DNA from: Torpedo marmorata
Lineage: Eukaryota
Reading direction: 5' to 3'
Assembly: GCA_977017645.1 (NCBI GenBank)
Contig: OZ360257.1
Span: forward strand, 15,314,001 to 15,378,000
Length of the DNA stretch: 64,000 nucleotides
The notes below the pieces were generated by a model, which saw only the letters and a program-made list of their open reading frames with translations, was not told where the DNA came from and searched no databases. Of this stretch, positions 3,623-62,823 are shown piece after piece (the first letter of the stretch is position 1; each line of letters opens with the position of its first letter). The position numbers and the translations under genes were made by a program.

Positions 3623-3683
3623 ATGCCACGAATGGACGCCACGGAGATCTTCTATCCCAGTCTTGCAATTGTCGGCATTCCTG
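3623..3683 (+). CDS. gpr139-like: Family A GPCR copy 1, coding exon 1 (MPRMDATEIFYPSLAIVGIP+G)
   Basis: ATG at 3623 and a second in-frame ATG at 3632. The exon ends CCTG|GTAAGT (canonical donor at 3684, phase 1). It encodes the start of TM1 and joins exon 2 in frame as P-G-N-L-L. Confidence 0.88.
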
Positions 3684-3924
3684 GTAAGTGATTTTGCTGC
3701 GATCTCCGCCGAGTGTTTTCTGGTTGTCCGTATTNNNNNNNNNNNNNNNNNNNNNNNNNNNNNNNNNNNNNNNNNNNNNNNNNNNNNNNNNNNNNNNNNN
3801 NNNNNNNNNNNNNNNNNNNNNNNNNNNNNNNNNNNNNNNNNNNNNNNNNNNNNNNNNNNNNNNNNNNNNNAGCCGTCGTCGCCCTGCCAGGATTTAAAGA
3901 ATCATTTGACCTACAGTTGTTGAA

Positions 3925-4486
3925 GTTAGACAATGTCCAGTCAATAGAAAATAAATCCGAAGACCTCAGGGCAAAACTGCTATATCAGAGACAGTTGAGA
4001 CAAATCAGTTGTTTGCTGCTCCAAGTCCTGGTTAACAGAAAACACAAAGAACGCTGCGATCCGACCAGAGGTTTTAATCATTCACAGGCTGGACTGAGAC
4101 ATGGATTCTGGCAAAGTGAGAGGGCACGGTGTTTGCTTTTCAGTTAATATCGGTTGGTGCCCGGACGTTGGTGTTCATTCGAAATCTTCCTGCAGATATC
4201 GATCAAATGCAAACCCTTCAATGTACCCCTTGGGTTCTCATCAGTTATTCTCACCCGAGTGTATCTCCTTCCCGACACCAACTACAAACAGGCACTTGCG
4301 GAGCTGCATGACGTGGTCAGTAAACAAGCCCACCCCGAGACACTTCCAGTCACAGTCGTTGACTTTTACCAGGCCTGTCTTAAGAAAGCCCTGCGCAAAT
4401 ATCACCAGCACGTAACCTGCTGTACCAGAGGCACCAGCTCATTTGATCATTGCGACAACATAAGGAATGCTTACATTCTATCATGA
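3925..4486 (+). mobile_element. Rex1/Babar-type LINE endonuclease fragment inside family A intron 1 (full in units 1, 2, 3 and 6; partial in 4 and 5)
   Basis: Peptides NVQSIENKSEDLRAKLLYQR, SGKVRGHGVCFSVNIGWC and IKCKPF..FSSVILT.VY..QALAELHDVV..DFYQACLKK..YHQHVTCCTRG..DHC match the recalled Rex1/Babar APE pattern. Confidence 0.78.
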
Positions 4487-4509
4487 TAGAGCATGTTGGT
4501 GTTTGCTGT

Positions 4510-5469: not shown

Positions 5470-6356
5470 GTAACCTGCTCTCGATTGTGGTCCTGTCCCG
5501 GGGAATGTGCGGCCTCTCCAAAGGAGTGACTCGTTACATGGTAACCATGGCCGTTGCAGACACAATGGTCTGTGTGTTTAACGTTACGGTGACAAACGTC
5601 TTCCGCTATCATTTTCCTCATTCATTCCTGGCACATACCTCCACTTGTCGTCTTATAGCCTTCATACAGATATTTAGCGTGCAATTCTCTGTCTGGGCCA
5701 CGGTATCGTTCACAGTGGACCGCTTCATTGCCATTTGTTGCCAGCATTTCAAAACAAAATATTGTACCGAAAGAAACGCCACGGTGGTTCTTACAACTGT
5801 GTGTCTGCTGAGTTTTTTGATGCACATTCCAGCTTATTTCCGGTATGAACCGCATTACATTGCGGGTGATGTCCAATGGGGCTGCCGTACTATAACACAA
5901 TATATTTATTCACCAGCATGGCAGACTTACAGATGGTTGTCTAAACTTATGGTACCACTGGTGCCGCTGCCGCTGATGTTGCTGTTGAATTCTCTCACCG
6001 TCCGACACATTTTACTTGTCAGCAGAGCTCGGAAGGCTTTGAAGCGCCGTGGGGACGGCGAGGTCTGTGATCCCGAGATGACGAACCGGAGAACGTCCAT
6101 TATATTGCTCTTCGCCATTTCTGGTAACTTCATTGCGTTGTGGACACCAGTTACGATAATTGACATATTTTACCAACTCACAACCTTTGCTGTCGACGCC
6201 CCGAAGTCACTGCTTCTGGCAATTAGAATCGCGATTCTGCTGATGTATTTGAGCTGCTGTACAAACACTTGTGTTTATGCATTGACACAGAGGAGATTCC
6301 GGGAGGAGGTGAAAAAAGTTGCAAATTATCCATTTATTGCCTTTGTATGGTTTTAA
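5470..6356 (+). CDS. gpr139-like: Family A GPCR copy 1, exon 2 (GPR139/GPR142-like class A 7TM; 315 aa spliced)
   Basis: Pyrimidine tract followed by TTACAG|GT at 5469/5470. Motifs: GN in TM1, MAVAD in TM2, C3.25, SVWATVSFTVDRFIAICC..KTKYCT, ECL2 WGC, NSLTVRHIL, FIALWTP in TM6, SCCTNTCVY and RFREE. The ORF-track start at 5424 is intronic. Confidence 0.93.
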
Positions 6357-7128: not shown

Positions 7129-7134
7129 AATAAA
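7129..7134 (+). terminator. Candidate polyadenylation signal for family A (AATAAA; equivalent at 21003 and in units 3 and 5)
   Basis: AATAAA conserved ~0.8-0.9 kb after the stop codon in all four exon-2-bearing units. No transcript evidence. Confidence 0.35.
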
Positions 7135-7239
7135 ATAATCTTGAATCTGGTAATATTTAGATCAGTTGAAAACTTGGGTTGAGCGATGATAGCTAGACTT
7201 TAACACTGAAAACTGCAAATAGTGCAGGAAATATGCACA

Positions 7240-7700: not shown

Positions 7701-7717
7701 TTCTTAAACAGGCATAT

Positions 7718-12954: not shown

Positions 12955-14330
12955 CTATAAAAAGGGTAAAAGAGAGTATCCTGAGAATTACAGACAGGTG
13001 AGGCTTACGTCAGTGGTGTGCAAACTATTGGAGAGGATTCTTAAGGACAGGATCTATGAGCATTTGGAGAAGTACAGTCGTCTGAGGGACATAGGCATGG
13101 CTTTGTGAGGGATTGGTCGTGCCTCATGAACCACATTGCATTTTCTGAGGAGATAACAAAGTATAAATAGGAAAGTGTGACAGTAACCCAGGTACATATG
13201 GATTTCAGTGAGGCGTTTGATAAGGTTCCCCATGAAAGACTCGGTCAGAAAGACATCAGGCATTCTATCCACGGAATCTTGGCTGTGTGGATAAAAAATT
13301 GGCTTGCCTGTAGAAAGCAGAGGACGGAACAGATAGTATTCTGTCTGAACATCAGTGACCAGTGGAGTTCCGCAGGGATATATTCTAGAACCCCTGCTCT
13401 TTGTGCTTTTTATAAATGACCGAGATGAAGAGCGGAAGGTTGTGTCAGTAGGTTTTCAGATGATATAATTGTTGGAGGAGCTGCAGTTAGTGTTGAAATT
13501 TGTCGTAGATTTCAATGCAGAGATGGGCGCAAAAGTGGCAGATCGAGTTCAATCCGGATAGGTTTGTGAAGCATTTTGGAAGGTCAAACCTTGATGAATA
13601 CAACATTAATGGTCGGATACTTAAGAGTGTGGAGGAACAGAGGGACCTTGTAGTTCAAATCCATAGATCTCTCAATGCTTCCGCGCAGGTTGATAGGATA
13701 GTTAAGAAGGCCTATGGGATGCTGGGTTTCAATAATAGGGATATTGTGTTCAATAGTATAGAGGTCATGTTGCAACTCTACACACCTCTGGTTAGACCAT
13801 ACATATAGTATTTTATTCAGTTCTGGCCACATCGTTATAGGAAGGATGTGGAAACTGTGGAGAGGGTGCGGAGGAGATTTACCAGGGTATTGCCTGGATT
13901 GGAAAATGTCTTCCGAGGCAAGGTTAGTAGAGCAAGGACTTTTTTGTTTGGAGCGAAGAAGGATGAGAGGTGACTTCATCAAAGTCTCCAAAAATATATA
14001 CAATAGATAGGGAAAACAGCAAGCGTCTTTTCGCAGGGAGGGAATAGCAAACACCAGGGGACGTATGCACAAAGTGAAGGGCGATATCAGAGGTAAATTA
14101 TTCACACAGAGATGGAGGTGCCGGCAATGCCTTGCCAGGTTGGTGGTGGGGGCTGAAACATTTTGGGTATTTAAGAGACTCGTAGACAGGCACATGGATG
14201 AACGAAAATTAGAGGATTAAGAGGTTGGAAGGTTTCAGTATTTTCTTGGTAGGAATATACAGATCGGTACAACATTGAAGGCCGAATAGCCTGTACTGTG
14301 CTCTCATGTTCCATCTTCTATGTTCTATGT
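12955..14330 (+). mobile_element. Decayed CR1/HER1 LINE RT to 3' end (copies at ~25135-26520, 37640-39030, 46920-48310, 58330-59720)
   Basis: Peptides KKGKREYPENYRQVRLTSVVCKLLE, MDFSEAFDKVPH, WAQKWQIEFNPD, EQRDL and LYTPLVRP. Ends in a TTCTATG tandem tail directly before the family B pseudogene. Confidence 0.92.
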
Positions 14331-14339
14331 TTTGAAACT

Positions 14340-15487
14340 ACTTTGCTGCCAATCGTCATTCTGTTCCATGTAATTTACGGCCTCTCAAAATGCATCACTC
14401 AGTGGTTGCTGGGAATGGCAGAAGCTGAATGAGTGGTTGTGAAACTGTATATGAATTGATTTTTTATGAGAGTAACGATCGGTATTTTCCACATTCAGAC
14501 TTCAATCAGACTTCTCTCTGGAGAGTTATTCTGACCATGTTATTTATTTCCATTGACGGTTCAATGTGACTAACTGTGGCTTTCATGTTCGATCGATTGT
14601 TTGCTATTTGTCACCAAACGTTACGAGCAAAATATTGCACAGAAAATAATTCATATGTAGCGAAAGCGCGGTGGAACTTTCCTCAACATTTGGAGAAAAC
14701 ACCATTTTATTTACTAACGTCGGGAAGTAATTGATAACGTTGAATTATCCTGCAATGTAATATCATGCTTTTACACCTTATGAATTTGAGCAGTTATTCT
14801 CTGGCAGTAAAAAGTCTTTAACGCATTTACTCTTTATGTCTTTATCTTGGCGCCACATTCCCTGACCATCAGCCGCATTATACCGGCTATCCGAGCGAGG
14901 AGCGAACTCCGAAGAAAGAACAACAATGGGAACCGCAGTGTCGCAGAGATGGGGAACCGCAGGAAACCGATAATGTTTCTGATGGTCATTTCCAGCACGT
15001 TTATTCTCTTCAGGATGGCTTTCATATGCGTGCAATTTACTGATACGCAGTTTTTGGAAGGAAGCTGCAATGATACCTTCACCATTGCGGGATTGTCGGG
15101 TTATATGCTGATGTTTTCGATTTCTTGCCCAATCCCATTGTTAACAATAGCGGTTAGAGCAACGCTATTTCAGCGCCAGCGACCCGGGTTCATTTCCGGC
15201 GCTACTGTAAGTAGTTTGTACATTCTCCCCATGTCAACGTGTGTTTCCTCCGTGCCCTCCGGTTTCCTCCCAAATAAAAAAAACGGAAGGAGGTTGAAAG
15301 TTAATTGTGGTATTTTGGTGGCATGTGCTCGTGGGCCGGAAGTGCCAGTTCCCGTTCCGTGTGCCACATTTAAAATTTAAAACACTTCATTGTTGCACTA
15401 TCCCAGAGAAAATTCAGAGAGGGTCTGAAGAATCTGGTAAAATGTCTAGTGACTCTTCTTACCAAGGCAAACAACTGCAAGGAATGA
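14340..15487 (+). pseudogene. Family B GPR139-like pseudogene (exon-2 equivalent) with stops, frameshifts and a SINE in TM7
   Basis: Hand translation: LLPIVILFHVIYGLSKCITQWLLGMA...YFPHS...SIDGSM*LTVAFMFDRLFAICHQTLRAKYCTE...LTISRI...EMGNRRKPI...GYMLMFSISC [SINE] ...ALSQRKFREGLKNLVK. TGA at 14567 replaces the TM3 Trp. Confidence 0.88.
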
Positions 15488-17391: not shown

Positions 17392-17452
17392 ATGCCACGA
17401 ATAGAAGCCACGGAGATCTTCTATCCCATTCTTGCAATTGTCGGCATTCCTG
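17392..17452 (+). CDS. gpr139-like: Family A GPCR copy 2, exon 1 (MPRIEATEIFYPILAIVGIP+G)
   Basis: ATG at 17392; the second ATG has become ATA. Donor GTAAGT at 17453. Confidence 0.86.
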
Positions 17453-19216: not shown

Positions 19217-20130
19217 GTAACCTGCTCTCGATTGTGGTCCTGTCCCGGGGAATGTGCGGCCTCTCCAAAGGAGTGATTCGTTACATGGTAACCATGGCAG
19301 TTGCAGACACAATGGTCTGTGTGTTTAACGTTACAGTGACATTCGTTTTCCGCCATCATTTTCAAGGTTCATTCTGGGCACACACCACCACTTGTCGCCT
19401 TTCAGACTTCATACAGAAATCCAGCGTGCAATTTTCTGTCTGGGCCACGGTATCGTTCACAGTGGACCGCTTCATTGCCATTTGTTGCCAGCAATTCAAA
19501 ACAAAATATTGTACCGAAAGAAACGCCACGGTGGTTCTTACAACTGTGGTTCTGCTGAGCTTTTTGATGCATATTCCAGCTTATTTCCGGTATGAACCCC
19601 TTTACATTGCGGGTGATGTCCAATGGGGCTGCCGTACTATAACACAATATATTTCTTCACCAGCATGGCAGACTTACAGATGGTTGTCTAAACTTATGGT
19701 ACCACTGGTGCCGCTGCCGCTGATGTTGCTATTGAATTCTCTCACCGTCCGACACATTTTACTTGTCAGCAGAGCTCGGAAGGCTTTGAAGCGCAGTGGG
19801 GACGGTCAGGTATTTGATCCCGAGATGACGAACCGGAGAACGTCCATTATATTGCTCTTCGCCATTTCTGGTACCTTCATAGCGTTGTGGACACCGGTTA
19901 CGATAATTGACCAATATTTCCATCTCACATTAAGCTTTGCGACCGACGCCCCGAAGTCACTGCTTCTGGCAATTAGATTCGCGATTCTGCTGATGTATTT
20001 GAGCTGCTCTACAAACACTTGTGTTTATGCAATGACACAGAGGAGATTCCGGGAGGAGGTGAAGAAGGTGGCAAAACATCCATGTATTGCCCTTGTACGG
20101 TTTTTAAAACCAATGACGCAGCCACAATGA
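19217..20130 (+). CDS. gpr139-like: Family A GPCR copy 2, exon 2 (324 aa spliced)
   Basis: Acceptor TTACAG ends at 19216. Uninterrupted 7TM frame to TGA at 20128-20130, with the same motifs as copy 1. Confidence 0.93.
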
Positions 20131-24824: not shown

Positions 24825-26530
24825 CGGGTGGCAGCGATAGTGGAGTCTTCGGGACGATACTTTGCCTCAGGGCCATGCTTGAAGTTCAGCTCAGCAAGGT
24901 CAAGTTTGAACCTCTTTTCAGAAGAGATGGATCTGATCTCGGCTTCCATATGACATCAACGTTATTAAAGTAAATGTGCACAAGTCTAAGTAGAGCAAAC
25001 ATGCAGTCTCATCGCGCTAATGCCACACTCTTAAAACTACCAGAGAAACGTGGTTCAATAATAATATAATTTCAGCAAATCAGAAGTGTCTGCTGTTCTG
25101 CCTTCAGATCAGAGAACATTATTAATCTAAATCTCTAAAAAGGGTAATATAGAGTATCCTGAGAATTACAGACAGGTGAGGCTTACGTCAGTGGTGTGAA
25201 AACTATCGGAGAGGATTCTTAAGGACACGATTTATGAGCATTTGGAGAAGTACAGTCGTCTGAGAGACATAAGCATGGCTTTGTGAGGGGATGGTCGTGC
25301 CTCATGAGCCTCATTGCATTTTCTGAGGAGATAACAAAATATATTGAGGAAAGTGTGACTTTAGACAAGGTACATATAGATTTCAGTGAGGCGTTTGACA
25401 AGGTTCCCCATGAAGGACTCGGTCAGAAAGACATCAGGCATTCTATCCACGGATTCTCAGCTGTGTGGATAAAAAATTGGCTTGCCTGTAGAAAGCAGAG
25501 GACGGCACAGAAAGTATTCTGTCTGGAAGTCAGTGACTAGTGGAGTTCCGCAGGGATATATTCTAGAACCCCAGCTCTTTGTGCATTTTATAAATGACCG
25601 AGATGAAGAGCGGAAGGGTGTGTCAGTAGGTTTGCAGATGATATAATGGTTGGAGGAGCTGCAGTTAGTGTTGAAGTTTGTCGTAGATTACAATGCAGAG
25701 ATGGGCGCAAAAGTGGCAGATCGACTTCAATCCGGATAAGTTTGTGAAGCATTTTGGAAGGTCAAACCTTGATGACTACAGCATTAATGGTCGGATACTT
25801 AAGAGTGTGGAGGAACAGAGGGACCTTGAAGTTCAAATCCATAGATCTCTCAATGTTTCCGCGCAGGTTGATAGGATAGTTAAGAAGGCGTAGGGATGCT
25901 GGGTTTCAATAATAGGGAGATTGAGTTCAATAGTATAGAGGTCATGTTGCAACTCTACACACCTCTGGTTAGACCATACTTATAGTATTTTATTCAGTTA
26001 TGGCCACATCGTTATAGGAAGGACGTGGAAACTGTGGAGAGGGTGCGGAGGAGATTTACCAGTGTATTGCCTGGATTGGAAAATGTCTTCCGAGGCAAGG
26101 TTAGTAGAGCAGGGACTTTTTTGTTTGGAGTGAAGAAGGATGAGAGGTGACTTAATCAAAGTCTACAAGAATATAGACAGTAGATAGGGAAGACAGCAAG
26201 CGCCTTTTCGCAGGGAGGGAATAGCAAACACCAGGGGACGTTTGCACAAAGTGAAGGGAGGAAGGTTGAGGGGAGATATCAGAGGTAAATTATTCTCACA
26301 GAGATGGAGGAGCCGGCAATGCTTTGCCAGGTTGGTGGTGGGGGCTGAATCATTTTGGGTATTTAAGAGACTCGTAGACAGGCACATGGATGAACGAAAT
26401 TAGAGGATTAAAAGTTTGGAAGGTTTCAGTATTTTCTTGGTAGGAATGTACAGATCGGCACAACATTGAAGGCCGAATAGCCAGTACTGTGCTGTCATGT
26501 TCCATGTTCTATGTTATATGTTTTGAAACT

Positions 26531-27680
26531 ATTTTGCTGCCAATCGTCATTCTGTTCCATGTAATTTACGGCCTCTCAAAATGCATCACTCAGTGGTTGC
26601 TGGGAATGGCAGAAGCTGACTGAGAAGTTGTGAAACTTTATATGAATTGATTTTATATGAGATTGACGATCGGTATTTTCCACATTCAGACTTCAATCAG
26701 ACTTCTCTCTGCAGAGTTATTCTGACCATGTTATTTATTTCCATTGACGGTTCAATGTGACTAACTGTGGCTTTCATGTTCGATCGATTTTTTGCTATTT
26801 GTCACCAAAATCTACGAGCAAAATATTGCACTGAAAATAATTCATCTGTAGCGAAAGCGCGGTGGAATTTTCCTCAACATTTGGAGAAAGCACCATTTTA
26901 TTCACTAACCTCGGGAAGTAATTGATAACGTTGAATTATCCTGCAATGTAATATCATGCTTTTACACCTTATGAATTTGAGCAGTTATTCTCTGGCAGTA
27001 AAAAGTCTTTAACTCATTTGCTCTTTATGTCTTTATCTTGTCGCCACATTCCCTGACCATCAGCCGCATTATACTGTCTATCCGAGCGAGGAGCAAACTC
27101 CGAAGAAGGAACAACAATGGGAACCGCAGTGTCGCAGAGATGGGGAACCGCAGGAAACCGATAATGTTGCTGCTGGTCATTTCCAGCACGTTTATTCTCT
27201 TCAGGATGGCTTTCATATGCGTGCAATTTACTGATAAGCAGTTTTTGGAAGGAAGCTGCAATGATACCTTCACCATTGCGGGATTGTTGGGTTATATGCT
27301 GATGTTTTCGAGTTCTTGCCCAATCCCATTGTTAACAATAGCGATCAGAGCAACGCTATTACAGCGCCAGCGACCCGGGTTCATTTCCGGCGCTACTGGA
27401 AGGAGCTTGTACATTCTCCCCATGTCCACGAGTGTTTCCTCCGTGCCCTCCGGTTTCCTCCCAAATAAAAAAAAAACGTAAGGAGGTTGAAAGTTAATTG
27501 TGATATTTTGGTGGGACGGGCTCGTGGGCCGGAAGTGCCTGTTCCCGTTCCCAACGCTAGATTTAAAATTTAAACCACTTCCTTGTTGCACTGTCCTAGA
27601 GAAAATTCAGAGAGGGTCTGAAGAACCTGGTAAAATGTCCAGTGACTCTTCTTACCAAGGCAAACAACTGCAAGGAATGA
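26531..27680 (+). pseudogene. Family B GPCR pseudogene copy
   Basis: Same sequence, same TM3 TGA and same SINE as 14340-15487. Confidence 0.87.
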
Positions 27681-29577: not shown

Positions 29578-29629
29578 ATGGACGCCACGGAGATCTTCTA
29601 TCCCATTCTTGCAATTGTCGGCATTCCTG
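29578..29629 (+). CDS. gpr139-like: Family A GPCR copy 3, exon 1 (MDATEIFYPILAIVGIP+G)
   Basis: The first ATG is ATA (29569); the second ATG at 29578 is intact. Donor GTAAGT at 29630. Confidence 0.87.
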
Positions 29630-37341: not shown

Positions 37342-39037
37342 ATAGTGGAGTTTTCGGGTCGATACTTTTACTCAGGGCCATGCTTGAAGTTCAGCTCAGC
37401 AAGGTGAGGTTTGACCCTCTTTTCAGGAGCGATGGATCTGATCTCGGCTCCCATATGACATCAACGTTATTAAAGTAAATGCGCACAAGTCTAAGGAGAG
37501 CAAACATGCAGTCTCATCGCGCTTATGCCACTCTCTTAAAACTACCAGAGCAACGTGGTTCAATAATAATATAATTGCAGCAGATCACGAAGTGTCTGCT
37601 GTTCTACCCTTCAGATCAGAGAACATTATTAATCTAAATCTCTAAAAAGGGTAATAGAGAGTATCCTGAGAATTACAGACAGGTGAGGCTTACGTCAGTG
37701 GTGTGCAAACTATTGGAGAGGATTCTTAAGGACGGGATTTATGAGTATTTGGAGAATTACAGTCGTCTGAGGGACATAAGCATGGTTTTGTGAGGGGATG
37801 GTCGTGCCTCATGAGCCTCATTGCATTTTCTGAGGAGATAACAAAATATAAATAGGAAAGTGTGACGGTAGACCAGGTACATATGGATTTCAGTGAGGCG
37901 TTTAACAAGGTTCCCCATGAAAGACTCGATCAGAAAGACATCAGGCATTCTTACCACGGAATCTTGGCTGTGTGAATAAAAAATTGGCTTGCCTGTTGGA
38001 AGAAGAGGACGGAACAGAAATTATTCTGTCTGAACGTCAGTGACTAGTGGAGTTCCGCAGGTATATTTTCTTGAACCCTTGCTCTTTGTGATTTTTGGAA
38101 ATGAACTAGATGAAAAGCGGAAGGGTGTGTCAGTAGGTTTGCAGACGATATAATGGTTGGAGGAGCAGCAGTTAGTGTTGAGGTTTGTAGTAGATTACAA
38201 TGCAGAGATGGGCGCAAAAGTGGAAAATCGAGTTCAATCCGGTTAAGTTTGTGAAGCATTTTGGAAGGTCAAACCTTGATGAATACTGCATTAATGGTCG
38301 GATACTTAAGAGTGTGGAGGAAGAGAGGGACCTTGAAGTTAAAATCCATAGATCTCTCAATGTTTCCGCGCAGGTTGATAGGATAGTTAAGAAGGCCTAG
38401 GGATGCTGGGTTTCAATAATAGGGGGATTGAGTTCAATAGTATAGAGGTTATGTTGCAACTCGACACACCTCTGGTTAGACCATACTTATAGTATTTTAT
38501 TCAGTTATGGCCACATCGTTATAGGAAGGCTGTGGAATCTGTGGAGAGGGTGCGGAGGAGATTTACCAGGATATTGTCTGGATTGGAAAATGTCTTCCGA
38601 GGCAAGGTTAGTAGAGCAAGGACTTTTTTGTTTGGAGCGAACAAGGATGAGAGGTGACTTAATCAAAGTATATAAGAATATATACAATAGATAGGGTAGG
38701 CAGCAAGCGCCTTTTCGCAGGGAGGGAATGGCAAACACCAGGGGACGTATGCACAAAGTGAAGGGAGGTAGGTTGAGGGGAGATATCAGAGGTAAATTAT
38801 TCACACAGAGATGGAGGTGCCGGCAATGCCTTGCCAGGTTGGTGGTGAGGGCTTAAACATTCCGGGTATTAAGAGACTCGTAGACAGGCACATGGATGAA
38901 CGAAAATTAGAGGATTAAGAGGTTGGAAGGTTTCAGTATTTTCTTGGTAGGAATATAAAGGTCGGCACAACATTGAAGGCCGAACAGCCTGTACTGCGCT
39001 GTCATGTTCCATGTTCTATGTTCTATGTTTTGAAACA

Positions 39038-40186
39038 ACTTTGCTGCCAATCGTTATTCTGTTCCATGTAATTTACGGCCTCTCAAAATGCATCTCTCAG
39101 TGGTTGCTGGGAAAGGCAGAAGCTGACTGAGAAGTTGTGAAACTGTATATGAATTGATTTTATATGAGATTAACGATCGGTATTTTCCACATTCAGACTT
39201 CAATCAGACTTCTCTCTGTAGAGTTATTCTGACCATGTTATTTATTTCCATTGACGATTCAATGTGACTAACTGTGGCTTTCATGTTCGATCGATTTTTT
39301 GCTATTTGTCACCAAAATCTACGAGCAAAATATTGCACTGAAAATAATTCATCTCTAGCGAAAGCGCGGTGGAATTTTCCTCAACATTTGGAGAAAGCAC
39401 CATTTTATTCACTAACCTCGGGAAGTAATTGATAACGTTGAATTATCCTGCAATGTAATATCATGCTTTTACACCTTATGAATTTGAGCAGTTATTCTCT
39501 GGCAGGAAAAAGTCTTTAACTCATTTGCTCTTTATGTCTTTATCTTGACGCCACATTCCCTGACCATCAGCCGCATTATACTGGCTAACCGAGCGAGGAG
39601 CAAACTCCGAAGAAGGAACAACAATGGGAACCGCAGTGTCACAGAGATGCGGAACCGCAGGAAACCGATAATGTTGCTGCTGGTCATTTCCAGCACGTTT
39701 ATTCTCTTCAGGATGGCTTTCATATGCGTGCAATTTACTGATAAGCAGTTTTTGGAAGGAAGCTGCAATGATACCTTCACCATTGCGGGATTGTCGGGTT
39801 ATATGCTGATGTTTTCGAATTTTTGCCCAATCCCATTGTTAACAATAGCGGTTAGAGCAACGCTATTTCAGCGCCAGCGACCCGGGTTCATTTCCGGCGC
39901 TACTGACAGGAGCTTATACGTTCTCCCCATGTCTACGTGTGTTTCCTCCGTGCCCTCCGGTTTCCTCCCAAATAAAAAAAAAAGTAAGGAGGTTGAAAGT
40001 TAATTGTGGCATTTTGGTGGCACGGGCTCGTGGGTCGGAAGTGCCTGTTCCCGTTCCGTATGCTACATTTAAAATTTAAACCACTTCATTGTTGCACTGT
40101 CCCCGAGAAAATTCAGAGAGGGTCTGAAGAATCTGTTGAAATTTCCAGTGACTCTTCTTACCAAGGCAAACAACAGCAAGGAATGA
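39038..40186 (+). pseudogene. Family B GPCR pseudogene copy
   Basis: Same lesions as the other family B copies. Confidence 0.87.
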
Positions 40187-40726
40187 CAGCAGTTTATTTT
40201 CTCAAATACCAAAATGAATAACCTCGAACAAAGTAAACAAAAATCACTGCACGTGCATGATCACAAAGGGACCTTCAAATGAAAATTGGGTCTCTGGAAG
40301 GTGCAAAGAACATAAAATATACAACACACTGCAGACCCTTCTGTACACGATGTTGTGCCAATTTACCTAAACTCATTCCACAATAATATAATTTCCCAAG
40401 CGCACGCCTGTAACGCGAAATCTTTCTTACACCCTGTTCCTATCTTGGAGACATTAGAATGTCCCTATTGTTGCAACCTCCACCACCACCACAGGCAATG
40501 ATTTCGAGGGACCAACCACTATCTGTATAAAAACGTACCTCCCACATTTGCCTTAAAGTTTCCTTTACGCACCTTAATAAACTGTCCTCCGGTATTAACT
40601 ATTGTCGTCTCAGGAAACAGGTGCTGAATGTCCAAACATCCTAAGCCCCCTCATAATATTATATACCTTTGTTTATTCACCTGTCATCCACAGAGAAAAG
40701 CTCTATATCTGTCACCCTTGCTCCAT

Positions 40727-42778
40727 TAATATAAATGGGATTAAAGTAGGTGCAGAAGAGCATAAAATTAGTCTGTTTGCAGATGATGTATTAATATATA
40801 TGACAAAATCTATTAAATCACTTCAACAATTAGATAAGATATTGAGGGATTATGGTGAGATATCTGGATATAAAATAAATTCGGATAAAAGTGAGATAAT
40901 GGCTCTATCTCAAGGAGACTATACTAAATGTAAAGAAGTTACAAAATTTAAATGGGCTAAAGAAACAATTAAATATTTGGGAGTTAAAGTAGATACAAAA
41001 TTAGAAAATTTATATAAATCAAATTATATACCTTTATTTCAGAAAATAAAGAAAGATTTGGATAATTGGAAAGATTTACCTATAACTTTAATGGGAAGAG
41101 TGAATTGTATTAAAATGAATATTTTTCCAAGAGTTCAATATCTTTTTCAATCTATACCTTATGGTATTCCTCAAAAATTTTTTAAAGATTTAAAAATTAT
41201 TATTAGAAAGTTTTTATGGAAAGGAAAATTGGCAAGGGTAAGTATAGATAAATTAACTTGGGAATATGAAATGGGTGGATTACAACTTCCTAATTTTCAA
41301 TATTATTATAAGGCAGCACAATTAAAATTTATAAATGAATTTTTTGATTTAACTAAAAATACGGCTTGGATTAATATAGAATTGAGTAATATAGGGGAAA
41401 GATATAAGGAAGATATTATTTATAAATGGAATTCCAAATTATTATTGATTAAAAAGAAAAAGTCACCGATTATTAAACACTTATTGGAAATTTGGAATCA
41501 GCTAGATAATGAAATAGGACGAAAAGGATCAATATCTTTAAATATGCCATTATATCAGAACCTATTGTTACCTTTTTCTATTGATAATCAATTTTTAAAA
41601 TTATGGTATCAAAAAGGAATTAAGAAGATTAAAGATTGTTTTGAGGCAGGAAGATTTGTTACTTTTTCTAGATTGAAGGAAAAATTTGGAATAATGGACA
41701 ATACAATTTTGGCTTATTATCAGGTTAAAGGATTTTTAGTTGAGAAATTAGGGATCAATTAATATCTCCTAGACAAGATGGGTTAGAGTTACTAATTACT
41801 AATGGAAATGTTAATAAATTTATATCACAAATGTATAAATTACTTCAGAGAAAGATGCCTAAAGTAGGACTACATAAATCTAGATTAAATTGGGAGTCAG
41901 ATTTAAATATTAGTATAGACGAACAACATTGGAAAGAACTATGTAAATTGAGTATGACTAAAATTATTAATGTTAGATATAGATTAGTACAATATAACTT
42001 TTTCCATCAATTATATATAACACCTAAAAAATTAAAGAAATTTAATCCGGCATTATCAGATATGTGTTTTAGGTGTAAAGATGAAATAGGTTCTTTTGTA
42101 CACTGTACATGGTCATGTTTAAAAATTCAAAATTTTTGCTCTAAAGTTAAGGATTTTTTAGATAGAATTTTTAATATTACGATTCCAATGGTCCCTATGA
42201 TATTTCTATTTGGAGATATTAAAAAAATTAATATTAGAAATAGATTGAATATGTATCAAATAGAATTTTTACGAATTGTGTTAGCGATTTCAAAAAAATG
42301 TATCGCTATTACTTGGAAATCAGATTTAGATTTGAATTTGGATAGATTACATGCAGAGTTACGCACGTGTATACCATTGGAAAAAATTACCTATAATCTA
42401 CGAGATAAATACCATTTCTTTTTGAAAATTTGGAGCCCATATATAAGAATTATGGGTATGAATTAATTCTCTAAAAGTTAGTAACGCTGACAAAAGTAAC
42501 CTCCAATATATAAGTAGAGTTAGCTTGTAATGGTTTTCTCCTCATACTAACTCTCATAACTTTATTATTCATTCTATTTTTTTTTTCTTTTAACTAATAC
42601 TTTTTTTTCATATTTTTCTTTTTCTTTTATTAGAATAGTGAGGGAGGGTTGGGGAGGGGAGGGTGGGAGGGGGGGAGGTAATATATCACATGTATTTTGA
42701 ATAATATACTATTTTTGATATATGTATTTTGTGATTTTAAAAATTAAATACAATTATTTAAAAAAAATAAAAAAAAAA
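40727..42778 (+). mobile_element. 5'-truncated L1-clade LINE (ORF2 3' half, 3'UTR, poly(A)) with an 11-bp TSD; present in one unit only
   Basis: RT core SLFADDVLIY and YLGV; C-terminal CFRC..GSFVHCTWSC zinc knuckle. One frameshift at ~41760. T-rich then G-rich 3'UTR and an A tail at 42760-42778. TSD CCTTGCTCCAT at 40716-40726 and 42779-42789. The empty site is seen in other units (e.g. ~16017). Confidence 0.95.
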
Positions 42779-44152: not shown

Positions 44153-44213
44153 ATGCCACGAATGGAAGCCACGGAGATCTTCTATCCCATTCTTGCAATT
44201 GTCGGCATTCCTG
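44153..44213 (+). CDS. gpr139-like: Family A unit-4 exon 1 (MPRMEATEIFYPILAIVGIP+G); its own exon 2 is deleted
   Basis: Both ATGs, the TATA box and the GTAAGT donor (44214) are intact. The downstream acceptor tract is broken at 45438. Confidence 0.75.
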
Positions 44214-46610: not shown

Positions 46611-48318
46611 CGGGTGGCAGCGATAGTGGAGTTTTCGGGACGATACATTTCCTCAGGGCCATGCTTAAAGGTCAGCTCAGCAAGGTCAGGTTTGACCCTC
46701 TTTTCAGGAGCGCTGGATCTGATCTCGGCTCCCATGACATCAACGTTATTAAAGTAAATGCGCACAAGTCTAAGTAGAGCAAACATGCAGTCTCATCGCG
46801 CTTATGCCACTCTCTTAAACCTTCCAGAGAAACGTGGTTCAATAATAATATAATTGCAGCAAATCACGAAGTGTCTGCTGTTCTGCCCTTCAGATCAGAG
46901 AACATTATTAATCTAAATCTCTAAAAAGGGTAATAGAGAGAATCCTGAGAATTACAGACAGGTGAGGCTGACGTCAGTGGTGTGAAAACAATTGGAGAGG
47001 ATTCTTAAGGACAGGATTTATGAGCATTAGGAGAAGTACAGTCGTCTGAGGGACATAAGCATGGTTTTGTGAGGGGATGGTCGTGCCTCATGAGCCTCAT
47101 TGCATTTTCTGAGGAGAAATCAAAACATAATGAGGAAAGTGTGACGGTAGACCAGGTACATATGGATTTGAGTGAGGCGTTTGACAAGGTTCCCCATGAA
47201 ATACTGGATCAGAAAGGCATCAGGCATTCTATCCACGGAATCTTGGCTGTGTGAATAAAAAATTGGCTTGCCTGTAGAAAGAAGAGGACGGAACAGAAAG
47301 TATCCTGTCGGAACATCAGTGGCTAGTGGAGTTCCGCAGGGATGTTTTCTTCAACCCTTGCTCTTTGTGATTTTTGTAAATGACCTAGATGAAGAGCGGA
47401 AGCGTGGGTCAGTAGGTGTGCAGATGATATAATGGTTGGAGGAGCTGCAGTTAGTGTTGAAATCTGTCGTAGATTGCAATGCAGAGATGGGCGCAAAAGT
47501 GGCAGATCGAGTTCAATCCGGATAAGTTTGTGAAGCATTTTGGAAGGTCAAACCTTGCTGAATACAGCATTAATGGTCGGATACTTAAGAGTGTGGAGGA
47601 AGAGAGGGACCTTGAAGTTAAAATCCATACATCTCTCAATGTTTCCGCGCAGGTTAATAGGATAGTTAAGAAGGCCTATGGGATGCTGGGTGTCAATAAT
47701 AGGGGGATTGCGTTCAATAGTATAGAGGTCATGTTGCAAATCAACACACCTCTGGTGAGACCATACTTATAGTATTTTATTCAGTTATGGCCACATCGTT
47801 ATGGGAAGGATGTGGAAACTGTGGAGAGGGTGCGGAGGAGATTTACCAGGGTATTGCCTGGATTGGAAAATGTCTTATGAGGCAAGGTTAGTAGAGCAAG
47901 GACTTTTCTATTTGGAGCGAAGAAGGATGAGAGGTGACTTCATAAAAGTCTACAAGAATATATACAATAGATAGGGTAGACAGCAAGCGCTTTTTCGCAG
48001 GGAGGGAATAGCAAACACCAGGGGACGTATGCACAAAGTGAAGTGAGGAAGGTTGAGGGGAGATATCAGAGGTAAATTATTCACACAGTAATGGAGGTGC
48101 CGGCAATGCCTTGCCAGGTTGGTGGTGGGGGCTGAAGCATTTTGGGTATTTAAGAGACTCGTAGACAGGCACATGGATGAACGAAAATTAGAGGATTAAG
48201 TGGTTGAAAGGTTTCAGTATTTTCTTGGTAGGAATATACAGGTCGGCACAACATTGAAGGCCGAATAGCCTGTACTGTGCTGTCGTGTTCCATGTTCTAT
48301 GTTCTATGTTTTGAAACT

Positions 48319-48882
48319 ACTTTACTGCCAATCGTCATTCTGTTCCATGTAATTTACTGCCTCTCAAAATGCATCACTCAGTGGTTGCTGGGAATGGCAG
48401 AAGCTGACTGAGAAGTTGTGAAACTGCACATGAATTGATTGTATATGAGATTAAAGATTGGTATTTTCCACATTCAGACTTCAATCCGACTTCTCTCTGT
48501 AGAGTTATTCTGACGATTTTATTTATTTCCATTGACTGTTCAATGTGACTAACTGTGTCTTTCATGTTCGATCGATTTTTTGCTATTTGTCACCAAACGC
48601 TCCGAGCAAAATATTGCACTGAAAATAATTCATCTGTAGCGAAAGCGCGGTGGAATTTTCCTCAACATTTGGGAAAAAACACCATTTTATTTATTAACCT
48701 CGGGAAGTAATTGATAACGTTGAATTATCCTGCAATGTAATATCATGCTTTTACACCTTATGAATTTGAGCAGTTATTCTCTCGCAGGAAACAGTCTTTA
48801 ACTCATTTGCTCTTTATGTCTTTATCTTGGCGCCACATTCCCTGACCATCAGCCGCATTATACTGGCTAACCGAGCGAGGAG
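48319..48882 (+). pseudogene. Family B GPCR pseudogene copy, 3' part deleted
   Basis: Matches family B up to CCGAGCGAGGAG, then jumps into the minus-strand CR1 (GCCAACCCACC). Confidence 0.83.
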
Positions 48883-50708: not shown

Positions 50709-51622
50709 GTAACCTGCTCTCGATTGTGGTCCTGTCCCGGGGAATGTACGGCCTCTCCAAAGGAGTGATTCGTTACATGGTAACCATGGCAGTTGCAGAC
50801 ACAATGGTCTGTGTGTTTAACGTTACAGTGATATTCGTCTTCGGCTATCATTTTCCTCATTCATTCCTGGCACATACCTCCACTTGTCGTCTTACAGACT
50901 TCATACAGAAATCCAGCGTGCAATTCTCTGTCTGGGCCACGGTATCGTTCACAGTCGACCGCTTCATTGCCATTTGTTGCCAGCAATTCAAAACAAAATA
51001 TTGTACCGAAAGAAACGCCACGGTAGTTCTTACGACTGTGTGTGTGCTGAGCTTTTTGATGAACATTCCAGTTTATTTCCGGTATGAACCCCATTACATT
51101 GCGGGTGATGTCAAATGGGGCTGCAGTACTATAACACGATATATTTCTTCACCAGCATGGCATACTTACAGATGGTTGTCTAAACCTATGGTACCACTGG
51201 TGCCCCTGCCGCTGATGTTGCTGTTGAATTCTCTCACCGTCCGACACATTTTACTTGTCAGCAGAGCTCGGAGGGCTTTGAAGAGCCGTGGGGACGGTCA
51301 AGTGTTTGATACCGAGATGACGAACCGGAGAACGTCCATTATATTGCTCTTCGCCATTTCTTGTACCTTCATAGCGTTGTGGACACCGGTTACGATAATT
51401 GACCAATACTTCCATCTCACATTAAGCTTTTCGATCGACGCCCCGAAGTCACTGCTTCTGGCAATTAGAATCACGATTCTGCTGATGTATTTGAGCTGCT
51501 GTACAAACACTTGTGTTTATGCAATGACACAGAGGAGATTCCGGGATGAGGTGAAGAAGGTGGCAAAATATCCATTTATTGCCCTTGTACGGTTTTTAAA
51601 ACCTATGACGCAGCAACAATGA
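50709..51622 (+). CDS. gpr139-like: Family A unit-5 exon 2 (intact 914 nt); its own promoter and exon 1 are deleted, probable partner of exon 1 at 44153
   Basis: Acceptor TTACAG ends at 50708. No stop or frameshift before TGA at 51620-51622. Confidence 0.85.
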
Positions 51623-57600: not shown

Positions 57601-59728
57601 TGGGCCATAGTTTTATGCCAACCTTATAATCTCCGCTTCCAAGAATTCCGAGAATTTCCGTCCTGTATAACGCTCATTTTCTCTCTGTTCCATGCACCAA
57701 TATACTCGTCTCTAAAAATATCCTATTGTACCTGCCTCTAAAACAGTTGCCAGCAGTGAATTCCACGCACCCATTCCTCTCTGTGTGAAGATTGTACCTC
57801 TAACCCTCCCCATGTACTTATCCGAAGCACTTTTAAAGGCCCCCCCCCCGGCTGAATGGAGATTTTCCTTTGCGTGTGGAAACCTTTCTTCCACAGTGCC
57901 AAAACGTCAAACTATTGGGGGGACTCAGCGGATTGAACAGCGTGTGTGTGTGTGTGTTTCTGTATGTGTGTGTTTGTGTTTTGTGTGTGTGTGTGTGTGT
58001 GTGAGTGTGTGAGTGGGCGGGTGTCAGCGATAGTGGAGTTTTCGGGACGATACTTTGCCTCAGGGCCATGCTTGAAACTCAGCTCAGCAAGGTCAAGTTT
58101 GACCCTCTTTTCAGAAGAGATGAATCTGATCTCGGCTTCCATATGACATCAACGTTATTAAAGTAAATGCGCACAAGTCTAAGTAGAGCAAACATGCAGT
58201 CTCATCGCGCTTAAGCCACACTCTTAAAACTACCAGAGAAACGTGGTTCAATAATAATAATATAATTTCAGCAAATCACGAAGTGTCTGCTGTTCTGCCT
58301 TCAGATCAGAGAACATTATTAATCTAAATCTCTAAAAAGGGTAATAGAGAGTATCCTGAGAATTACAGACAGGTGAGGCTTACGTCAGTGGTGTGAAAAC
58401 TATCGGAGAGGATTCTTAAGGACACGATTTATGAGCATTTGGAGACGTACAGTCGTCTGAGAGACATAAGCATGGCTTTGTGAGGGGATGGTCGTGCCTC
58501 ATGAGCCTCATGGCATTTTCTGAGGAGATAACAAAATATATTGAGGAAAGTGTGCCTTTAGACAAGGTACATATGGATTTCAGTTAGGCGTTTGACATGG
58601 TTCCCCATGAAAGACTCGGTCATAAAGACATCAGGCATTCTATCCACGGAATCTCAGCTGTGTGGATAAAAAATTGGCTTGCCTGTAGAAAGCAGAGGAC
58701 GGAACAGAAAGTATTCTGTCTGAACATCAGTGACTAGTTGAGTTCCGCAGGGATATATTCTAGAACCCCTGCTCTTTGTGCATTTTATAAATGACCGAGA
58801 TGAAGAGCGGAAGGGTGTGTCAGTAGGTTTTCAGATGATATAATGGTTGGAGGAGCTGCAGTTAGGGTTGAGGTTTGTCGTAGATTACAATGCAGAGATG
58901 GGCGCAAAGGTGGCAGATCGACTTCAATCCGGATAAGTTTGTGAAGCAGTTTGGAAGGTCAAACCTTGATGAATACAGCATTAATGGTCGGATACTTAAG
59001 AGTGTGGAGGAACAGAAGGACCTTGAAGTTCAAATCCATAGATCTCTCAATGTTTCCGCGCAGGTTGATAGGATAGTTAAGAAGGCCTAGGGATGCTGGG
59101 TTTCAATAATAAGGAGATTGAGTTCAATAGTATAGAGGTCATGTTGCAACTCTACACACCTCTGGTTAGACCATACTTATAGTATTTTATTCAGTTATGG
59201 CCACATCGTTATTGGAAGGATGTGGAAACTGTGGAGAGGGTGCGGAGGAGATTTACCAGTGTATTGCCTGGATTGGCAAATGTCTTCCAAGGCAAGGTTA
59301 GTAGAGCAGGGACTTTTTTGTTTGGAGTGAAGAAGGATGAGAGGTGAATTAATCAAAGTCTACATGAATATAGACAGAAGATAGGGAAGACAGCAAGCGC
59401 CTTTTCGCAGGGAGGGAATAGCAAACACCAGAGGACGTATGCACAAAGTGAAGGGAGGAAGGTTGAGGGGAGATATCAGAGGTAAATTATTCACACAGAG
59501 ATGGAGGAGCCGGCAATGTTTTGCCAGGTTGGTGGTGGGGGCTGAATCATTTTGGGTATTTAAGAGACTCGTAGACAGGCACATGGATGAACGAAAATTA
59601 GAGGATTAAAAGTTTGGAAGGTTTCAGTATTTTCTTGGTAGGAATATACAGATCGGCACAACATTGAAGGCCGAATAGCCAGTACTGTGCTGTCATGTTC
59701 CATGTTCTATGTTCTATGTTTTGAAACT

Positions 59729-60872
59729 ATTTTGCTGCCAATCGTCATTCTGTTCCATGTAATTTACGGCCTCTCAAAATGCATCACTCAGTGGTTGTTG
59801 GGAATGGCAGAAGCTGACTGAGAAGTTGTGAAACTGTTTTTGAATTGATATGAGATTAACGATCGGTATTTTCCACATTCACACTTCAATCAGACTTCTC
59901 TCTGTAGAGTTATTCTGACCATGTTATGTCTTTCCATTGACGGTTCAATGTGACTAACTGTGGCTTTCATGTTCGATCGATTTTATGCTATTTGTCACCA
60001 AACGCTACCAGCAAAATATTGCACTGAAAATAATTCATCTGTAGCGAAAGCGCGGTGGAATTTTCCTCAACATTTGGGATAAAACACCATTTTATTTACT
60101 AACGTCGGGAAGTAATTGATAACGTTGAATTATCCTGCAATGTAATATCATGCTTTTACACCTTATGAATTTGAGCAGTTATTCTCTGGCAGTAAAAAGT
60201 CTTTAACTCATTTACTCTTTATGTCTTTATCTTGGCGCCACATTCCCTGACCATCAGCCGCATTATACTGGCTATCCGAGCGATGAGCAAACTCCGAAGA
60301 AAGAACACCAATGGGAACCGCAGTGTCGCAGAGATGGGGAACCGCAGGAAACCGATAATGTTGTTGCTGGTCATTTCCAGCACGTTTATTCTCTTCAGGA
60401 TGGCTTTCATATGCGTGCAATTTACTGTTGCGCATATTTTTGAAGGAAGCTGCAATGATTCCTTCACCATTGCGGGATTGTCGGGTTATATGCTGAAGTT
60501 TTCGATTTCTTGCCCAATCCCATTGTTAACAACAGCGGTTAGAGTAACGCTATTACAGCGCCAGCGACCCGGGTTCATTTCCGGCGCTACTGGAAGGAGC
60601 TTGTACGTTCTCCCCATGTCTACGAGTGTTTCCTCCGTGCCCTCCGGTTTCCTCCCAAATAAAAAAAAACGTAAGGAGGTTGAAAGTTAATTGTGGTATT
60701 TTGGTGGGACGGTCTCGTGGGCCGGAAGTGCCTGTTCCCGTTCCAATGCTAGATTTAAAATTTAAACCACTTCCTTGTTGCACTGTCCCAGAGAAAATTC
60801 AGAGAGGGTCTGAAGAATCTGGTAAAATGTCCAGTGACTCTTCTTACCAAGGCAAACAACTGCAAGGAAAGA
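59729..60872 (+). pseudogene. Family B GPCR pseudogene copy
   Basis: Same lesions as the other family B copies. Confidence 0.87.
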
Positions 60873-62771
60873 CACCAGTTTATTTTCTCACATAACAAAA
60901 TGAATAACCTCGAACAAAGTAAACAAAAATCACTGTACGTGCATGATCACAAAGTAACCTTCAAATGAAAATTGGGTCTCTGGAAGGTGCACAGAACATA
61001 AAATATACAACACACTGCAGTCCCTTCAGTACACGACGTGGTGCCAATTTACGTAAACCCATTCCACAACAATATAATTTCCCAAGCGCACACCTATAAC
61101 GCTATATCTTTCTTACACCCTGTTCCTATCGTGGAGACATTGGAATGTCCCTATTGTAGCAGCCTCCACCACCACCACAGGCAATGATTTCGAGGGACCA
61201 ATCACTATCTGTTTAAAAACTTACCTTCCACATTTGCCTTAAAGTTTCCTTTACTCACCTTAATAAGCTGTCCTCCGGTATTAACTATTGTCGCCCCAGG
61301 AATCAGGTGCAGAATGTCCAAACTTTCGAAGCCGCCTCATAACCTTATCTACCTTTGTTTATTCACCTGTCATCCACAGAGAAATTCTCTATCTCTGTCA
61401 ACCTTGCTCCACATGACTTGGTCTCCAATCCAGGCAATAGAATATCCTGATAAATATCTGCACCCTCTCCAATGCATCTACATACTTGCAGAAACAAAGC
61501 GACCAGAACTGAACGTAATATTCCAAGTGTGGTCTCACCAGAGTTTTATGGGTCTGCAACATTTCCTCTCGGATTTTATCCGACGAATGAAGGCCAACCC
61601 ACCACACACCTTCTTGACTAGCGCGTCAACGTGCGCACCAACCTTGAGGGTGTATTAACATGGACCCCAAGATCTCTCAGTTCCTCCAAACTGTTAGAAC
61701 TTCTGCCATTAACACGCACTTCGCCTTCGATTCGACCTCCAAAGTGCACTACACTTAACCGTATAGAACTCAATCTGCCACTTCTCTGCCCAACTCCGCA
61801 TCCTGTCTATATCGCGTTGTAACCCACGGCAGCCTTCTGCACTTCCAACAACACTGTGAACCGTTGTATCATTAGCAAATGCAAAGAAAATAGAGCACAG
61901 AAAGAAATTCTCTGATTGGACTTGATGCCTTCGAACCAACCCTCAGCGTTGATGCATTACCCCAAATACCACAGGCGATCCAAACACTCCTCGGATCTGT
62001 GTGGCGTTTGCAACAAAAATTAACCCAGCATTTCAAGCGGGATGGTTCACGTCACAGTTCGGCGGAATGCATTTACAGCGTCAGCGACGAGGGTTCAAAT
62101 ACAGCGCTGCCCTGGAAGGAGTTTTATTGCTTTCCCTCGTGAACTGCTCGGTTTCCCCGGGTACTCTGGGTTCTTCCCACTCACGAAAAAAAGTATGGGG
62201 TTGGCATGTTCAGTGGATGCCATTTGGCAGCAGGGGCGTCGGTATAGTTTAAATAAAAGTTCAGTCAAGCCAGCATGGCAGTTGACGAGTGAAAACAAAT
62301 CATCAGGTCAGACCGACTGATGAACTTCTGAAAACTCATGGGAACAAAGTTATTTTCAGGTGTATAATAATGAAAAGGAAAATATGTGTGATAATCAGGA
62401 TCATTGGGAACAAATAACAGAGAGAATTGCGAACAGGTACCCCCAGGGACGAAGTTAAAGCGAAGCAAATGGCGATAGATGAAGGCGACACTCCAGTGTC
62501 ACGGTTCCACGTCAGGTGATGCAGCGAGCTCGCACCTGAACCTTGTTTATTACGATAACTGGTGTTAGTTACTCTGGGCGGAGCGATCTCAGGTCATTAA
62601 CTTAGAATGAACTGATACTGTTTGTTAAATCGAGTATGTGGAGGTGTTATGTAATTTAATGTCCCAGTAGAACGGCTGCCCTATAAATTAGGCTTCACAG
62701 AGAAACTCTTCGTTTTCACATATTCATATGTGCTGTGGAGAAACCGCTCTTATCCTCAAAAGATACCACGA

Positions 62772-62823
62772 ATGGACGCCACGGAGATCTTCTATCCCAT
62801 TCTTGCAATTGTCGGCATTCCTG
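62772..62823 (+). CDS. gpr139-like: Family A copy 6, exon 1 (MDATEIFYPILAIVGIP+G); exon 2 would lie beyond the window
   Basis: ATG at 62772 (upstream ATG is ATA). Donor GTAAGT at 62824. Intron sequence continues to the window end. Confidence 0.8.

Follow-up and report, generated by a model that had tools for sequence, protein, structure and literature searches.

A 64,000-nucleotide (nt) stretch of the Torpedo marmorata genome (GenBank assembly GCA_977017645.1, contig OZ360257.1, positions 15,314,001 to 15,378,000 of the forward strand), here called the window, was found to contain a tandem array of two-exon genes encoding G-protein coupled receptors (GPCRs) related to GPR139. Our preferred explanation, to which we give a probability of roughly 45%, is that this array would be a local cluster of a large elasmobranch GPCR family in which the ligand pockets were retuned as a sensor repertoire for outside cues. 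The interest rests more in the whole family than in the array of the window. Coordinates given below are positions in the window, on the plus strand unless stated otherwise.

Receptor class and the elasmobranch family

The receptors encoded in the window have the features of class A GPCRs, namely seven transmembrane (TM) helices, a Pfam 7tm_1 match above the cut-off, and the residues R3.50, P5.50, W6.48/P6.50, N7.49, and Y7.53. The best match in the PDB was human GPR139, whether compared by sequence, profile, or fold (first rank in Foldseek), with a profile E value of 4e-33 versus 2e-22 for the next receptor. By these comparisons the window receptors are assigned to the GPR139/142 superfamily, with GPR139 as the nearest characterized receptor. 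Human GPR139 resembles the window genes in having two exons, a non-canonical N5.58 and no proline at 7.50, and the position of its intron in TM1 may be the same; it differs in having D where the window genes have C3.25, in a shorter extracellular loop 2 (ECL2), and in that the window genes are multi-copy.

The family was searched using exon 2 of gene B (described below) as the query, which gave 334 matches at E ≤ 1e-10, the best 120 of which were listed and tallied by hand. It was found that 119 of these best 120 are named elasmobranch proteins, from 20 species, present in RefSeq and UniRef, mostly with "probable G-protein coupled receptor 139" as their automatic name. The closest among the matches listed are six proteins of Narcine bancroftii (66–80% identity) and, among the best 120 of 334, there are at least 26 clusters in Heptranchias and at least 21 in Heterodontus, the latter on contigs of 9 different lengths; there was no chimaera among the named matches listed. 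When proteins were represented at 50% identity, 87 were recovered at E ≤ 1e-30 (HMMER). Several database models that lack the first exon carry the names of unrelated receptors (melatonin, opioid, C5a, vasotocin, cephalotocin, or P2Y6 receptor-like; P0008, P0010, P0017, P0018, P0021, P0023–P0025, P0027, P0028, P0030, P0043, P0052, P0064, and P0109), and therefore family members are hidden from name-based counts.

A phylogeny was computed in IQ-TREE (LG+G4, no mixture model) from 68 rows, consisting of 4 window proteins, 45 of 124 elasmobranch matches, 5 amphibian or sturgeon proteins, 6 of a second paralogue, 2 unnamed proteins, and 6 of an invertebrate-like outgroup; the program warned of long-branch joins. 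All 49 elasmobranch rows formed one clade (support 100/98), which was sister to the amphibian and sturgeon gene (99/93). The paralogues of the window's subfamily group mostly by species, which marks what is evidently an old subfamily with continual turnover. The elasmobranch-wide clade, the clusters by species, and the pseudogenes bear out the proposal, made in a preliminary description of this DNA, of a lineage-specific repertoire that evolves by birth and death, and the family is older and has more members than was apparent in that description.

The sister gene comprises 20 amphibian clusters and one from sturgeon (P0207, P0389–P0408), with one cluster per species among the matches listed, and no amniote or teleost match was found in the same search. 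It has the short N-terminus of the window genes and may possibly belong to the additional GPR139/142 subtypes given by Rinne et al. The second paralogue (P0219, P0271–P0388) is a conserved GPR139-like gene of coelacanth, sharks, ray-finned fish, amphibians, and reptiles; the 120 matches listed for it contain neither mammals nor birds. It shares with the window genes the superfamily, an exon-1-type N-terminus, and the presence in sharks, and differs in forming a separate clade. Two of its models are fused to TMEM183A names, a hint that TMEM183A may be its neighbor. Both genes served as controls, and "single-copy" as used here for them is taken from search listings rather than genome counts.

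The window proteins are 23–24% identical to human GPR139, compared with 70% between zebrafish and human GPR139, a two-exon gene, as given in part of PMC7318219. In GPR139 the site for L-Trp and L-Phe was located by mutagenesis and modelling at F109, H187, W241, N271, and R244, according to the available text of PMC5430874. The corresponding residues in the window receptors (by helix-offset numbering) are K or I, S, W, I, and V, so that only one of the five (W6.48) is kept, in all four copies. At these positions, F, Q, W, N, and K are found in 20 of 20 sequences of the amphibian sister, and the four-residue set F3.33, W6.48, K6.51, N7.39 is present in all 20 of these but in none of 117 elasmobranch paralogues. 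The second paralogue keeps R6.51 in 50 of 50 sequences. Orthology to GPR139 was rejected on the grounds of the low identity and the 1/5 site residues, in agreement with the suggestion in the preliminary description that these may not be true GPR139 orthologs; the same residues argue against a carry-over of GPR139 L-Trp/L-Phe pharmacology to the array.

Membership in the OR, TAAR, V1R, FPR, or MRGPR families was likewise rejected: the profiles found were 7tm_1 (4 of 4 proteins) and a weak Srx (2 of 4), none of these Pfam families was matched, and the top PDB matches were GPR139 and peptide receptors. The array resembles the OR, TAAR, V1R/ORA, FPR, and MRGPR repertoires in its compact genes, tandem birth and death, conversion tracts, pseudogenes, variable pocket, and conserved signalling core, whereas it differs in ancestry and in a coding intron that splits TM1. 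A second likeness is to the nematode srw genes and expanded RFamide and myosuppressin receptors, which arose from the same receptor superfamily, although by an independent expansion in another phylum. The srw genes are chemosensory. Several relatives of the window receptors have Srw or Srx Pfam matches, and Srw-bearing clusters were present among the Atlas look-alikes.

Variability of the ligand pocket and its interpretation

The variability of the predicted ligand pocket was evaluated at 22 pocket-facing positions, picked from general knowledge of class A receptors, relative to 39 non-pocket positions at the ends of the same helices. The elasmobranch set contained 117 of the 120 matches listed (P0043, P0051, and P0064 were left out), the amphibian set 20 sequences (without sturgeon), and the second-paralogue set 50 of 120 sequences. 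Mean heterozygosity in elasmobranchs was 0.76 for pocket and 0.63 for non-pocket positions (P = 0.001), and variability in chemical class was 0.58 versus 0.40 (P = 0.001). In contrast, the amphibian sister had values of 0.009 for pocket and 0.16 for non-pocket positions, 21 of its 22 pocket sites being invariant across the 20 sequences, and the second paralogue had 0.25 and 0.42, its pocket being more conserved than the rest of the protein, even though its overall divergence (0.42) was like that of the main elasmobranch set (0.43). Within single species the ratio of pocket to inner-TM variability was 1.9–3.6 in five of five species tested, and orthologues from sharks and rays retain their pocket type (P0059, P0061, and P0063 share 21–22 of 22 residues). 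These comparisons show that the predicted pocket has diversified family-wide while it was frozen in the apparently single-copy sister gene, and a hypervariable pocket set against frozen single-copy controls is, as we read it, the signature of a repertoire. In this respect too the earlier idea of a lineage-specific repertoire is strengthened.

The four genes of the window were compared to a neutral expectation derived from the mutation spectrum of the flanking DNA. There were no stops and no frameshifts before helix 8 in any of the four copies, whereas 5.5–6.7 stops and 5.7–6.6 frameshifts were expected, about 11–13 disruptions in all. In the intracellular half there were 20 amino-acid changes versus 57.6 expected without helix 8 and tail (27 versus 65.6 with them), compared to 44 versus 47.2 in the extracellular half, which is 0.93 of the neutral rate; the split between the halves was significant (binomial P = 5e-4, all 315 codons). 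Purifying selection therefore acts on the reading frames and on the half that faces the cytoplasm and the G protein, whereas the rate of change in the extracellular half is close to neutral. For the genes of the window, positive selection was considered and was not shown; the segment from TM2 through ECL1 to TM3 reached 1.33 relative to neutral, but it contains a conversion tract.

As to what the receptors may detect, the window subfamily keeps Q3.32, Q3.37, K/R5.39, R7.36, and Y7.43, and because these residues are conserved in the subclade and the N-terminus is very short, the ligands would be polar small molecules or short peptides. The same residues suggest a ligand class bearing a carboxylate or sulfate. 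Gene A differs radically from B, C, and D at 3.29 and 3.33, and so the window has two pocket types, which may be two tunings for this class. In the mechanism that we envisage, the ancestor of jawed vertebrates would have had one GPR139-like gene from which the family grew, and the product of that gene may have bound one amino-acid-like or short-peptide ligand via F3.33, W6.48, K6.51, and N7.39. The elasmobranch copies would then have retuned the pocket to many polar small molecules or peptides. They would be expressed in chemosensory or sentinel cells of oral, gill, skin, or gut epithelium or in sensory neurons, presumably with Gq/Gi coupling, as for GPR139.

Several results weigh against this explanation. 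In the window's own subclade the pocket did not differ significantly from non-pocket extracellular sites (P = 0.19), nor in the sister subclade (P = 0.83). Genes B, C, and D have the same residue at 20 of 22 pocket positions and differ at only 2, so the local array is partly redundant and not itself the repertoire. The sequences are related, so that their independence is overstated in the site tests, and the controls consist of orthologues whereas the test sets consist of paralogues. The comparison of nonsynonymous to synonymous changes by region was not significant (Fisher P = 0.155), and overall omega was 0.55–0.76 and nowhere shown to exceed 1. A phylogeny with GPR139 and GPR142 had been called for in the preliminary description; the tree obtained places the elasmobranch rows in one clade, but from rows without true GPR139 and GPR142. 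No O/E-type site, the kind associated with olfactory receptor genes, was found within 1.3 kb upstream of any of the five promoter copies. In the part of PMC11979771 available, no GPCR is among the 50 genes most specific to a catshark brain-plus-olfactory library.

An alternative that we think unlikely is an immune or irritant repertoire, in which leukocytes, mast-like cells, or nociceptors would sense microbial or damage peptides, like mammalian FPR and MRGPR. It would leave the same birth-and-death and pocket signature and is consistent with the very short N-terminus, and the MAS1/MAS-related family is reported as absent in cartilaginous fishes in the available part of PMC8455134, so that its role would be vacant. 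The ancestry, however, lies in the GPR139/neuropeptide-receptor group and not in the chemoattractant group. Furthermore, no NF-kB-like site was found upstream in five of five copies, and an interferon-stimulated response element-like site had one match in four of five (both being weak indications).

Slightly less credence is given to relaxed, near-neutral drift in copy number, in which frames would be kept for dosage or redundancy of one function and the pocket variation would reflect lost constraint rather than new specificities. An extracellular half at 0.93 of the neutral rate, and not above it, would be expected under drift, as would the almost identical pockets of B, C, and D and the changes at conserved residues of gene D described below. 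In addition, a long-dead pseudogene was amplified together with the gene, and therefore whatever lies in the unit is copied. A pocket more variable than neighboring sites, in chemical class as well, is not predicted by simple relaxation, however, nor does drift fit with pocket types conserved in shark and ray orthologues and with the conserved frames and cytoplasmic half.

It is also improbable, in our estimate, that the receptors are an endogenous peptide system, co-diversified with an expanded elasmobranch peptide family in a neuroendocrine or reproductive role, in the way that nematode RFamide and myosuppressin receptors did. The modelled ECL2 has a strand pair and C3.25 is kept, as in peptide receptors, and an invariant promoter block (described below) holds motifs that we take to be two E-boxes, one cAMP response element half-site, and one forkhead-like site. 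The nearest invertebrate relatives of GPR139/142 are receptors for MIP/sex peptide, FMRFamide, proctolin, and myosuppressin, and C. elegans has 37 RFamide and 16 myosuppressin-like receptors, as stated in parts of PMC8514136 and PMC11004728. On the other side stand the species-specific turnover inside the subfamily and the abundant pseudogenes, and no peptide precursor was found in the window. Such turnover and pseudogenes are unusual for hormone receptors.

If the pockets of this family were indeed retuned for outside cues, a further step, which we regard as doubtful, would be that the "probable GPR139" label hides a large, overlooked chemoreceptor repertoire, expressed at one or a few receptors per cell in chemosensory cells of nose, mouth, skin, or gut. 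With the same degree of doubt, this repertoire would have been built independently from an amino-acid-type receptor that remained a single, frozen gene in amphibians and was found in neither mammals nor teleosts. Chemosensory expression, if true, would mean that vertebrates have one more family of chemoreceptors in addition to OR, TAAR, V1R, V2R, and the taste receptors.

No description of the elasmobranch expansion was found in the open literature, with subscription journals outside the scope, so that a prior description is possible. It is not described in the available portions of PMC8514136, PMC6504862, and PMC12294341, and GPR139 had no matches in the elephant shark supplement or in 13 of 24 whale shark supplementary files. 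As far as the accessible text of PMC6504862 goes, a survey of vertebrate GPCRs describes extra GPR139/142 subtypes in coelacanth, gar, and fishes without mention of sharks. The whale shark paper notes that GPCRs are relatively few in cartilaginous fishes (PMC8455134, in part), which are described as short of GPCRs and olfactory receptors in the sections available of PMC8455134 and PMC11979771. The catshark sensory paper covers four olfactory families and does not mention GPR139 in the main text sections available (PMC11979771), and GPCRs are not mentioned in the portion available of PMC10620051. This suggests that, although the genes are already in databases under an automatic name, their expansion as a lineage-specific repertoire from an unexpected ancestor is undescribed. 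A multi-chromosome family with at least 21–26 members per species among the best 120 matches and a diversified pocket is at odds with the GPCR-poor picture, and it would go unnoticed where candidate genes are surveyed only in the four olfactory families. The family bears on which receptors serve chemical sensing in sharks and rays and on the original ligand of the GPR139 superfamily, for which the amphibian sister gene with its frozen GPR139-like pocket is a handle and a deorphanization target by itself.

Architecture of the array and its genes

Comparison of the window to itself revealed head-to-tail units of 12–14 kb, with long self-matches that are 86–96% identical. Six units can be counted using the pseudogene described below as an anchor (1134, 14809, 27000, 39507, 48789, and 60194), in keeping with the at least six tandem units reported previously. 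There are five copies of exon 1 (3623, 17392, 29569, 44153, and 62763) and four of exon 2 (5470, 19217, 31415, and 50709). A complete gene of its own is present only in units A, B, and C (3 of 6); D1 and D2 are complementary half-units that may splice into a fourth gene, and E ends at the window edge. Therefore, the compact two-exon 7TM gene given in the preliminary description holds, but its statement that each of six units has such a gene was an overstatement.

Non-coding divergence among the six units is 6–12%, at about 6% among B–D and 9–12% between these and A, and rises to 11–16% close to the gene when unit A is compared to the others. The array was called young, which is appropriate only in a relative sense, since several subfamily paralogues are also present in Narcine and in sharks. 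Substitution rates are slow in sharks, and because of these slow rates and because conversion resets the clock, a divergence of about 6% need not be recent.

The array is a genuine tandem cluster and not an assembly duplicate. That the units are haplotypes or mis-assembled copies of a single locus is extremely improbable, for despite runs of N that adjoin simple repeats at homologous positions in each unit and D1/D2 junctions that taken alone may still be mis-joins, units A–D differ by 5.6–9.3% with 44 indels across about 6,400 aligned non-coding columns, one unit has a private LINE insertion with its target-site duplication, and Narcine, Mustelus, and Heptranchias have 6, 6, and 8 same-subfamily paralogues, respectively, on one chromosome-scale contig. 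Assembly duplication of one locus, which had been named as an outcome that would undo the earlier proposal, was thus examined and rejected.

Trees along the units are mosaic, and informative sites change topology in blocks, as in ECL1 (codons 67–81), where nine consecutive informative sites support AD|BC. Such blocks are the mark of conversion or unequal exchange. Units multiply and swap patches by unequal crossing-over and gene conversion.

The core of each unit is a gene with a 61-nt exon 1 that ends in a phase-1 GT donor inside TM1, an intron of 1.76–1.79 kb, and an exon 2 of 887–914 nt. Scripted splicing gave open frames in all four genes (315, 324, 324, and 324 codons for A, B, C, and D), and the proteins are 87–93% identical. 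Exon 2 matched 7tm_1 in all four (E = 1e-18 to 8e-22). Exon 1 is backed by full-length relatives, with P0039 and P0020 matching that of gene A (tblastn). An exon-1 motif was found in 0 of 27 database models of the window subclade, 36 of 68 of the wider family, and 0 of 21 of the amphibian group; because of this last value the count was considered unreliable and was not taken as a sign of low expression.

In gene A, exon 1 (3623..3683; splice model and tblastn) encodes a very short N-terminus and the first half of TM1, and the open exon 2 (5470..6356), with the pocket type A3.29, I3.33, stops after helix 8, eight residues before the B–D ends. Gene B (exons 17392..17452 and 19217..20130, the latter open) has ATG at codon 1 and ATA at codon 4, and its predicted structure has seven helices plus helix 8 and the ECL2 strand pair, with a pLDDT (predicted local distance difference test score) of 88.3. 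The reverse arrangement, ATA at codon 1 and ATG kept at codon 4, is found in gene C (exons 29569..29629, with the in-frame ATG at 29578, and 31415..32328, open) and in gene E, of which exon 1 is at 62763..62823 and exon 2 would fall past the window end.

Unit D1 has a promoter-proximal exon 1 (44153..44213), and its own exon 2 is deleted, with a junction near 45441, about 11 nt short of the acceptor. Unit D2 has an open exon 2 (50709..51622) and has lost its own promoter and exon 1 (junction near 49523). The complementary deletions of these adjacent units thus leave, between 44153 and 51622, one promoter with exon 1 and one exon 2, which splice in frame across a 6,495-nt intron, and gene D is possibly a chimeric gene born through reciprocal loss. 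Its exon 2 has the changes C34Y, P222T, and G239C at residues that are at least 91% conserved in the family, in addition to L180P in TM5. There are three changes at such residues in D compared to one each in B and C and none in A, and therefore gene D may be decaying.

Upstream of the genes, the longest invariant run is a 75-bp block identical in five of five promoter copies (3345..3419 in unit A), a candidate cis-regulatory element (permutation P = 0.005, given 12.7% variable columns). The spacer also has invariant runs of 59 and 50 bp, and gene conversion can mimic the block. A TATA box (TATAAA, 3542..3547) is present 81 nt 5′ of the first ATG in five of five copies. An out-of-frame ATG at 3588, 35 nt 5′ of the start and 3′ of the TATA box, is also kept in all five, and it is possible that it begins a translation-damping upstream open reading frame (ORF). 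The TATA box, the 75-bp block, and the missing O/E site do not settle the expressing tissue.

Passenger pseudogene, repeats, and gaps

Approximately 2.0–2.3 kb upstream of each exon 1 there is a pseudogene. It is a broken exon 2 that belongs to a separate GPR139-like subfamily, and P0154, P0107, and P0409 are its nearest relatives. Its protein identity to the intact genes is 31–50% over short matched stretches, and the DNA is at most weakly similar. Because identical stops and the same repeat insertion are found in every copy that covers those sites, the pseudogene evidently died before the duplications and was then copied as a passenger. The interpretation of these sequences as dead copies of the array gene was therefore rejected, and of the mix of intact, rearranged, and dead copies in the preliminary description, the intact and the rearranged (D1/D2) are confirmed.

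Copy B (14295..15484) is a near-full exon 2 with stops, frameshifts, and a repeat in TM7. Copies C (26444..27677), D1 (38966..40246), and E (59624..60932) lie at the corresponding places, and D2 (48249..48882) has its 3′ part deleted. Copy A (1021..1584) is represented by the 3′ part only, because sequence left of 1134 is replaced by a reverse-strand, LINE-like fragment (1–1134, minus strand) that truncates it.

This fragment is 71% identical to a 5′-truncated long interspersed nuclear element (LINE) at 40727..42778, upstream in unit D1 and private to it, with a poly(A) tail, an 11-bp target-site duplication, and an RVT_1 match (E = 1.7e-8), which we take to be L1-like from its features. A decayed reverse-transcriptase-like repeat, presumably CR1-like from its motifs, lies just 5′ of the pseudogene at 13171–14220 and at homologous sites in other units, with relatives upstream of exon 1 and, on the opposite strand, at 47479–47916. 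ORFs were inspected by eye, without a Pfam scan, down to a length of 120 aa across the whole window and of 55 aa in 6400–14400; no other cellular gene was recognized among them, and Rfam gave no matches in the window. A short interspersed repeat is present at 1472–1596 and at least 12 other sites, one copy being that in TM7 of the pseudogene. Nine runs of N (3735, 6761, 20573, 29678, 36718, 36926, 44266, 52064, and 62874) are at homologous sites beside simple repeats, and equivalent sites hold an unmasked GA array (32746–33018) and GT arrays (12564, 24733, 46529, and 57942).

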